A stretch of DNA of 40,147 nucleotides from the sequence record MW584198.1; one strand, written 5' to 3'. Below, piece by piece: positions 38,378-38,417 of this stretch (the stretch's first letter is position 1; every line of letters begins with the position of its first letter). Both the position numbers and the translations under genes were made by a program. The DNA is from Mycobacterium phage prophiGD43A-2. Under the pieces are notes generated by a model. The model worked only from the letters and a program-made list of their open reading frames with translations, did no database searches and had not been told where the DNA came from.

Positions 38378-38417
38378 CTAATGAGCAGGTCAGCGGTCCG
38401 ATTCCGCTAGGTGGCTC
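38378..38417 (+). repeat. Degenerate copy (32/40) of the att core/tRNA 3' half with compensatory stem changes, immediately downstream of int
   Basis: Compare CTAATGAGCAGGTCAGCGGTCCGATTCCGCTAGGTGGCTC with GTAATGAATAGGTCAGGGGTTCGATTCCCCTGGGTGGCTC. The T-stem keeps pairing (AGCGG/CCGCT against AGGGG/CCCCT). Confidence 0.6.

Follow-up and report, generated by a model that had tools for sequence, protein, structure and literature searches.

A probable vestige of a phage-borne tRNA-Thr(CGT) gene beside the integrase gene of a MabB-type mycobacterial prophage

Organization of the prophage and of its right end

The window, by which is meant the whole stretch of DNA analysed (40,147 nucleotides of Mycobacterium phage prophiGD43A-2, record MW584198.1), is a complete prophage with two identical 40-nt cores (positions 1–40 and 40108–40147) at its ends. 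Positions 35000–40147 share 96% identity with Mycobacterium phage prophi89-1 / phiGD89-1, and the window is related to further cluster MabB prophages of M. abscessus. At the right end, the lysis genes are followed by a leftward toxin cassette, a gap of 205 nt, the integrase gene (int), two small open reading frames (ORFs), the 3′ remnant of the repressor gene and the attR core. The G+C content of the toxin cassette is 53–62%, compared with 64–67% in its surroundings. The features discussed below are the following.

1..40, plus strand: attL common core, same sequence as the host-type tRNA-Thr(CGT) between anticodon base 2 and the 3′ end (repeat and tRNA match)
2..299, minus strand: immunity repressor, prophage form, crossing the attL core and running off the window (misc_feature 'immunity repressor' in relatives)
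35945..36400, minus strand: LpqN-like lipoprotein gene of the cassette (ORF and homologue annotation)
36402..37904, minus strand: polymorphic toxin protein with an N-terminal WXG motif (ORF and homologue annotation)
37911..38216, minus strand: WXG motif protein gene, first of the toxin cassette (ORF 37911..38375; start set by the 306-nt prophi89-1 homologue)
38279..38369, no strand: 91-nt filler, prophiT36-2b having 581 nt here, with gene 53 and the 5′ half of the tRNA (block alignment)
38370..38417, plus strand: truncated tRNA-Thr(CGT) pseudogene, tRNA positions 27–73 plus one base (homology to phage tRNA-Thr(CGT) genes)
38378..38417, plus strand: 40-mer singled out by the first-pass annotation, the portion of the pseudogene that aligns colinearly with the outer att core (33/40 to both cores)
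38422..39432, minus strand: tyrosine integrase, C-terminus ...DSDAA (ORF; annotated as tyrosine integrase in relatives)
39556..40019, minus strand: two small ORFs (39807–40019 and 39556–39810) between the repressor remnant and int (hypothetical proteins in relatives)
40019..40107, minus strand: 3′ remainder of the repressor in its viral form, sharing the frame of the core, C-terminus ...DRIAA (5′-open ORF 40019..40147)
40108..40147, plus strand: attR common core (40/40 to positions 1–40)

In its prophage form, the repressor is likely to start at ATG 299, the ORF as listed opening at TTG 403. Both outer cores are translated into the same repressor peptide, EPPRGIEPLTYSL. The features of integration-dependent immunity are thus all found here, with a core located inside the repressor gene, a viral repressor with the tail RIAA and an Int with the tail DSDAA. 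This layout has been described for MabB prophages in the main text of Dedrick et al. 2021 (PMC8092301).

The outer cores are derived from a host tRNA gene. The first 39 nt of the core are identical to the 3′ end of at least 17 full tRNA-Thr(CGT) genes, in a set of at least 121 genome stretches (one genome per species), and at least 12 of the 121 stretches listed are partial copies of this tRNA 3′ part with non-tRNA sequence upstream. According to the main text of PMC9934374, the attB-2 site of MabB prophages overlaps tRNA-Thr t5010, and the attB of the present prophage likewise overlaps a host tRNA gene. A short core of ∼10 bp is unable to rebuild a tRNA; the core here is 40 bp long, the same at both ends and of host type, and its sequence predicts that the host tRNA would be rebuilt at attL.

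A third, degenerate copy of the core

A repeat search groups positions 1–40, 38378–38417 and 40108–40147 in a single direct-repeat family, in which the inner copy is 33/40 (83%) identical to the outer cores. The first-pass annotation had described this inner stretch as a degenerate copy of the att core in the same orientation, with 32/40 identical positions; the likeness and the orientation stand, while the count has to be raised by one. The seven mismatches are found at 38378, 38385, 38386, 38394, 38398, 38406 and 38409. The similarity is well above chance, as had been supposed, since the runner-up match to the core elsewhere in the window, on either strand, reaches 22/40, and when the window was simulated 200 times with a first-order Markov model, the best match averaged 22.9 and was at most 25.

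The compensatory changes claimed for the T stem are also present, AGGGG/CCCCT being replaced by AGCGG/CCGCT (38394 G>C with 38406 C>G). The similarity to tRNA extends 8 nt further to the left (38370–38377), and completes a fully paired anticodon stem, GCTCA/TGAGC, so that the mismatches at 38385 and 38386 are compensated as well, by 38370–38371, outside the 40-mer. The location given at first reading is confirmed in both respects: the copy lies directly downstream of int, ending 4 nt short of its stop codon (38422–38424), and marks the junction of int with the toxin cassette. The repressor frame crosses the outer cores only, the inner copy being located between int and the WXG gene.

The presence of three same-orientation direct repeats of a tRNA 3′ part, together with the existence of MabN+MabB tandem prophages at attB-2 (main text of PMC9934374), could evoke the boundary of a tandem array, as proposed among other possibilities by the first-pass annotation. 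Segments 1–38417 and 38378–40147 would then belong to two different integrated elements, meeting at the inner copy as a hybrid att junction. This is almost certainly not the case. The inner copy (28225–28346) and int are found in the middle of the 40,450-bp phiGD89-1 record, which is taken as virion order in view of its coordinates, int being mid-genome, and this layout refutes an array boundary. The sole integrase found in 33000–40147 is encoded rightward of the inner copy, only a joining of the outer cores restores the repressor frame, and the inner copy and the cores are different tRNA alleles. Both the mid-genome position in phiGD89-1 and a repressor frame crossing the two outer cores bear out the single prophage that had initially been favoured.

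Identity of the inner copy and its lesions

The inner copy comprises the anticodon arm (GCTCA-CTGCTAA-TGAGC), the variable loop (AGGTC), the T arm (AGCGG-TCCGATT-CCGCT) and the 3′ strand of the acceptor stem (AGGTGGC) of a tRNA. Comparison with three alleles establishes homology to tRNA-Thr(CGT): the tRNA of prophiT36-2b agrees at 43/47 positions, the tRNA-Thr(CGT) gene of phage DuncansLeg at 44/47 and the host-type gene at 37/47. The host-type and prophiT36-2b tRNAs differ at 10 positions, all located within five base pairs and each compensated, and the two can therefore be regarded as functional alleles of a single tRNA. In this comparison the inner copy falls on the side of the prophiT36-2b allele and not to that of the att core, which is of host type. 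An origin from a homologous tRNA of a lineage other than that of the core, suggested from the T-stem changes, is thereby upheld (43–44/47 to the phage genes against 37/47 to the host gene), with the precision that both are the same isoacceptor, Thr-CGT.

The rest of the tRNA is absent. Homology between the window and prophiT36-2b in this region is limited to two blocks, 38200–38278 and 38370–38440, the second of which starts at tRNA position 27, and the right-hand portion of the 91-nt filler that separates them is common to other carriers of the remnant. The best ungapped match to the tRNA 5′ half in 38217–38369 is 14/26, a value reached by 609 of 2000 shuffles, and the 5′ acceptor strand and D arm needed for a complete cloverleaf are missing. 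The loops that survive have also lost their signatures: the anticodon loop CTGCTAA carries GCT instead of CGT, and is thus devoid of a Thr anticodon (NGT), and the T loop TCCGATT carries TCC instead of TTC. ARAGORN finds no tRNA gene in the window, and cmscan at E≤10 over 38100–38600 yields four weak matches, none of them to RF00005, one being 17 nt of a tmRNA T arm (12.1 bits). The window therefore holds a truncated copy only and no functional cognate tRNA.

A heptamer, GCCACCC, at 38304 is able to pair with the 3′ strand of the acceptor stem (plus-strand fold, z −1.91). A whole tRNA broken by an insertion was considered on this account and rejected, since the 5′ half has no significant match and the heptamer reads GCCAGCC in the two closest relatives.

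Full-length relatives of the tRNA

A complete version of the gene occupies the same place in prophiT36-2b (OQ417968). Its gene 54, annotated as tRNA-Thr(cgt) and confirmed by ARAGORN, is found at L003:4045–4118, 4 nt from the stop codon of int (4123–5136, opposite strand), in a position homologous to that of the window copy and on the same strand. In both prophages the sequence is flanked by the toxin cassette and by the 3′ end of int, and shares the stems GCTCA/TGAGC and AGCGG/CCGCT over the 43/47 identical positions of the 27–73 segment. The gene of prophiT36-2b differs in being complete and recognized as a tRNA, whereas the window copy is devoid of positions 1–26, carries GCT and TCC in its loops, and has T instead of C at position 69. 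Hence the description of the inner copy as a tRNA 3′ half or core copy is right as to its tRNA origin and too narrow otherwise, since a full gene is found at the same place in prophiT36-2b. In one sense the position is therefore that of a gene conserved in related phages, namely a tRNA gene. The acceptor strand reads AGGTGGC in the truncated copy and in DuncansLeg and AGGCGGC in prophiT36-2b; because of this difference the window copy is not a direct derivative of the prophiT36-2b allele. Side by side with these data, it can be observed that prophiT36-2b could itself have regained a full gene by recombination of a resident fragment with the tRNA of another prophage, which speaks against an ancestral full gene.

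The tRNA-Thr(CGT) genes nearest to the surviving part are those of cluster L phages (DuncansLeg ON755181, Crossroads, CELFI and Tourach), with 44/47 identical positions, the acceptor strand AGGTGGC and the C-G pair in the T stem. In contrast to the window copy, these genes are intact, lie in arrays of 6–7 tRNAs (in three cluster-L-type IMG/VR contigs), do not adjoin int and are non-cognate to attB; cluster L phages of M. smegmatis integrate at a tRNA-Lys gene, according to Table 2 of PMC10865867.

A second full gene has been found in the IMG/VR contig L141, whose tRNA is identical to that of prophiT36-2b at 74/74 positions and which shares a 51-kb contig with L149. The int of L149 is 79% identical to that of the window, with a host-type core (39/39), and the full tRNA of L141 is situated ∼3.8 kb from int, beyond toxin-immunity genes. 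Two int lineages that target tRNA-Thr(CGT) thus share an identical cognate tRNA, at either edge of a toxin cassette. From this L149-type prophage with its identical full tRNA it follows that carriage of a cognate tRNA recurs in tRNA-Thr(CGT) integrators, and the tRNA gene is mobile, given that L141 holds the same allele. In total, a functional cognate tRNA is present in prophiT36-2b and in the IMG/VR contigs L138 and L141.

The allele of the inner copy appears to be phage-borne as far as the search extended. The C-G variant of the T stem was found in none of the 401 genomes searched (≤1 mismatch), a sample of the family to which a Mycolicibacterium belongs, and neither this variant nor a Mycobacteroides locus is among the matches listed in the sample of 121 stretches (one genome per species).

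The tRNA of prophiT36-2b has received attention before: in the main text of Amarh et al. 2023 (PMC9934374) it is speculated to complement the impaired tRNA at the tandem junction, and the other MabB prophages are stated to be without tRNA. In both prophages that retain the full gene, the core likewise agrees with the host tRNA, so that a need for the gene by those two alone is not obvious, an observation that goes against a spare role.

Distribution among prophages

The region of int is common to 14 MabB-type phage records, among which eight carry the truncated copy (phiGD89-1, prophi89-1, GD16-1, GD11-2, GD08-2, GD42-2, phiGD21-1 and prophiGD21-1), one the full gene (prophiT36-2b) and five neither. 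Two of these five, prophi62-1 and T50-1, were aligned and retain only the last five tRNA bases, GGCTC. The other 34 records that matched the query are M. smegmatis phages according to the host tally, and the 31 listed have features annotated as tRNA-Thr. In IMG/VR, the T-arm variant is found in 11 contigs: six have a truncated copy beside int (95–98% identical), two a full tRNA identical to that of prophiT36-2b at 74/74 positions (one contig resembling prophiT36-2b, the other being L141), and three are of cluster L type with tRNA arrays. One tRNA is attributed to prophiGD21-1 in Table 1 of Dedrick et al. 2021 (PMC8092301); no tRNA feature is annotated in the GenBank entry of this prophage, and ARAGORN finds no tRNA in it.

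The lesions are largely shared. The anticodon reads GCT in 10 and GGC in one of the 11 truncated alleles, in place of CGT, and the T at position 55 of the T loop has been lost in 10 of the 11. As most close relatives share the same truncated and mutated copy, the truncation and the first lesions predate the divergence of these prophages. The anticodon stem is fully paired in only three of the 11 alleles and has undergone uncompensated changes in the rest, indicating that it is free of structural constraint. It also follows, since most of the relatives examined carry remains, that the tRNA gene appears old in the MabB group and is not a one-off gain of the T36 tandem prophage.

The gene is thus seen in three states, intact (prophiT36-2b and L141), truncated and mutated (this window and most relatives) and near-erased (prophi62-1 and T50-1, with GGCTC).

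The 3′ 41 nt of the fragment are nearly invariant in 10 of 11 alleles, and the 50 nt to its left are variable, a contrast between the 3′ 41 nt and the spacer that is the only usable one, because the blocks further upstream are out of register in two sequences owing to indels. Such near-invariance could mean constraint and would then count against survival by linkage alone; int is equally conserved (pi 0.012–0.048).

The inner copy as a candidate attachment site

Lying 4 nt away from the stop codon of int and convergent with this gene, the fragment has the classical place and orientation of a tRNA-int junction. It could on this ground be a relic or secondary attP, that is, an ancestral site of the int module with a core of ∼48 bp matching the tRNA-Thr(CGT) of another host, left behind when attP moved into the repressor gene and possibly still a weak substrate of Int. 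The full tRNA of prophiT36-2b would then be secondary and result from recombination of the relic with a whole tRNA gene. Its length of 47–49 nt is within the range of published cores (25–76 bp in the main text of PMC8092301; also Table 2 of PMC10865867), and the near-invariance of its 3′ 41 nt would be in keeping with such a past. A tRNA 3′ part of this size also resembles an attP core, which speaks against a decayed gene. In addition, the right-end core of prophiT36-2a is only 32/40 identical to the canonical core and has nonetheless been reported to take part in Int-mediated tandem integration (main text of PMC9934374), so that an identity of 33/40 is in itself no bar to an att site.

Several lines of evidence make a relic attP unlikely. 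The site holds a complete tRNA in prophiT36-2b, the identical gene lies away from int in L141, and close alleles occur in the tRNA arrays of cluster L. The T-stem variant is found in 0 of the 401 family genomes (≤1 mismatch) and in none of the 121 stretches listed. Three mismatches of the inner copy fall within the first 14 nt of the core, the sole stretch left unbroken between the prophiT36-2a and canonical cores, which would weigh against the site if strands are exchanged there. One 10-mer, at most a candidate arm-type site, recurs three times (≤1 mismatch) in the arms of the true attP and is absent beside the inner copy. Finally, the working attP of the family is inside the repressor gene. 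The second att-like copy is thus probably not a working attachment site.

The edge of the toxin cassette

Comparison of the relatives reveals three breakpoints, within the fragment or next to it, at which the conserved int module gives way to variable cassette DNA. The first is located between tRNA positions 26 and 27 (window type versus prophiT36-2b), the second ∼35 nt to the left of the fragment (GD11-2/GD21-1 type) and the third at 38413, within the acceptor strand (prophi62-1/T50-1 type). An independent view of the third is provided by a contig of an RNA run (X2) that departs from the window at 38413. The fragment lies at the int-side margin of the DNA over which M. abscessus prophages exchange polymorphic-toxin cassettes, and the notion of a footprint of the recombination that brought in the cassette, put forward in the initial annotation, fits the breakpoints observed.

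Data on expression come from RNA contigs, among which only the Logan contigs of one small run (X1) match the window exactly, strand and transcript ends not being given. Their depth is ∼25 over the cassette, up to an end at 38242, 26 nt upstream of the WXG start, then ∼4 over the fragment and ∼2 over int. Being contig depths devoid of strand and transcript ends, these values only suggest that a promoter of the cassette lies between the fragment and the WXG gene, and that abundant RNA of the fragment is absent. A further run (X6) has 10 raw reads, with no joints listed at the inner copy, a depth too low to bear on joints.

A role in cis has been considered in this context. The fragment could be retained as an RNA hairpin that ends or stabilizes the minus-strand int message, or as an insulator of int from a cassette expressed in the lysogen. 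On the minus strand the T-arm hairpin begins 10 nt past the int stop, the 3′ part of the fragment is more uniform than the spacer at its left, and contig depth in run X1 drops from the cassette to the fragment and int. Nevertheless, this role is highly unlikely. A scan for promoter-like and terminator-like sites in 38100–38500 returned none of either kind, the minus-strand fold is no better than that of shuffles (z −0.14) and the plus-strand fold only marginally so (z −1.91), five of the 14 relatives are devoid of all but the last five nucleotides (GGCTC), and the depths are those of contigs, which lack strand and transcript-end information.

Origin and decay of a spare tRNA

Taken together, the data indicate that 38370–38417 is probably what remains, without tRNA function, of a phage tRNA-Thr(CGT) gene once situated directly downstream of int in a MabB-type ancestor. 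Its resemblance to the att core would reflect common derivation from tRNA-Thr(CGT), the core representing the host allele and the inner copy an allele otherwise seen in phages. The ancestral gene may have served as a spare cognate tRNA, protecting the lysogen should the host tRNA-Thr(CGT) that provides attB be damaged, a role that we infer from the speculation in print on prophiT36-2b and from the demonstrated logic of tRNA-dependent lysogeny. The spare could have become dispensable and then decayed, because the 40-bp core, identical to the host-type gene, would rebuild the host tRNA exactly. The piece that survives probably persists by linkage to int, without a function of its own.

The intact gene and attB are already described in the literature. 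The truncated copies are not mentioned in the main-text passages searched of PMC10865867, PMC10654092 (which lists 139 cluster HB/MabB prophages), PMC9934374 and PMC8092301, among others; possibly relevant here are the att-site figures of PMC9934374. The claim made in the latter paper, of a tRNA-Thr gene in prophiT36-2b alone among MabB prophages, can be corrected in that most of the relatives examined keep remains of it.

Comparison with known modes of lysogeny

Integration-dependent immunity, with its particular attP, was reportedly described in MabB/BPs-type phages by Broussard and colleagues in 2013. The window resembles this system in having its outer core in the repressor frame and in the ends of Int and of the viral repressor, both -AA. 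The inner copy differs from a working attP in being outside the repressor gene, on the other side of int, and in deriving from another tRNA allele.

In tRNA-dependent lysogeny, as presented in the main text of Guerrero-Bustamante and Hatfull 2024 (PMC10865867), phages whose short core does not restore the host tRNA depend on a cognate tRNA of their own. The cognate tRNA of phage Gaia is located downstream of int, as is the inner copy here. The core is ∼10 bp in those phages, whereas that of the window is 40 bp long and identical to the host gene, and its cognate tRNA is dead. MabB prophages consequently fall outside the definition of tRNA-dependent lysogeny, their core not being short. In Table 2 of the same paper, no phage has a long core together with a cognate tRNA; MabB prophages combine both, the tRNA being intact in prophiT36-2b or decayed. 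They constitute a new case beside those of the table, a long tRNA-restoring core with a cognate phage tRNA both intact and decaying, which bears on the two modes of integration.

It is conceivable, though we hold it to be rather doubtful, that MabB prophages represent a natural intermediate between tRNA-dependent and canonical lysogeny, in which the spare was released after the 40-bp core had been gained or kept, and passed through intact, truncated and near-erased stages. If so, a direction would be given to the relationship of the two modes, called unclear in the discussion of the 2024 paper. A bolder extension would be that the 3′ 41 nt are still a secondary Int site that aids the swapping of toxin cassettes.

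Whatever its past, the fragment is a landmark for the exchange of polymorphic-toxin cassettes in M. abscessus prophages, at the breakpoint region on the int side. It also recalls the tRNA 3′-fragment repeats of genomic islands and prophage ends, which likewise consist of part of a tRNA 3′ end oriented like the target gene. Those repeats carry the host allele at the ends of the element, whereas the present one carries a phage-type allele inside a phage genome, as judged from its mid-record position in phiGD89-1. For annotation, att-like internal repeats of this kind should not be taken as prophage ends.

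Full-length tRNAThr(CGT) copies and att cores in related prophages

A second prophage type carrying a complete tRNA gene was found in IMG/VR, on a prophage-like contig of 51 kb (loci L141 and L149) whose integrase is 79% identical to that of the window and which also contains the host-type tRNAThr(CGT) core. The full tRNAThr(CGT) of this contig, at positions 1457–1530 of L141, is identical to the tRNA of the relative prophiT36-2b and lies ∼3.8 kb from int, beyond the toxin-immunity genes.

Divergence of the att core itself is observed in prophiT36-2a, where the deposited core at the right end (the last 40 nt of the record) matches the canonical 40-bp core at 32 of 40 positions. 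Nucleotides 1–14 are identical to those of the canonical core, and the changes are located mostly in the T loop and the acceptor strand.

The 3′ part of tRNAThr(CGT) occurs in 121 listed genome stretches, at least 12 of which have non-tRNA sequence upstream and constitute att-like partial copies; among the matches listed, the upstream motif GACGAATTCCGCTCGTAATGAAT recurs in at least five of these stretches. Together, the partial copies and the recurring motif suggest that tRNAThr(CGT) is commonly targeted for integration in other actinobacteria as well.

For prophiGD21-1, Table 1 of PMC8092301 gives a tRNA count of one. The whole deposited record is without a tRNA feature, and ARAGORN run on it in full returned no tRNA; the tabulated tRNA may be the truncated tRNA copy, counted under less strict calling criteria.

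Transcription around the tRNA fragment

The contigs of RNA library run X1 include one of depth 25 that spans the toxin cassette and stops at position 38242. Its end lies 26 nt upstream from the start of the WXG gene, and beyond it depth falls to ∼4 and then to ∼2 across the tRNA fragment and int. This profile fits a candidate lysogenic promoter for the toxin cassette within 38243–38300, the X1 contigs giving neither strand nor ends.

On the minus strand at 38413–38465, cmscan gave a weak match to the L31-Gammaproteobacteria ribosomal leader that stays below threshold (21.4 bits, gathering score 33.2; E = 0.023). This match, which includes both the int stop codon and the end of the tRNA fragment, is probably due to chance.

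Repeats in the early region

The repeat search (families D2/D3) also revealed, at 6072–6219 in the prophage early region, a 33-nt unit, ACGACCGGACACC.CAGTCCTGTGGACAACTCC, present in three to four head-to-tail copies; these candidate elements could be iterons or operator-like repeats.
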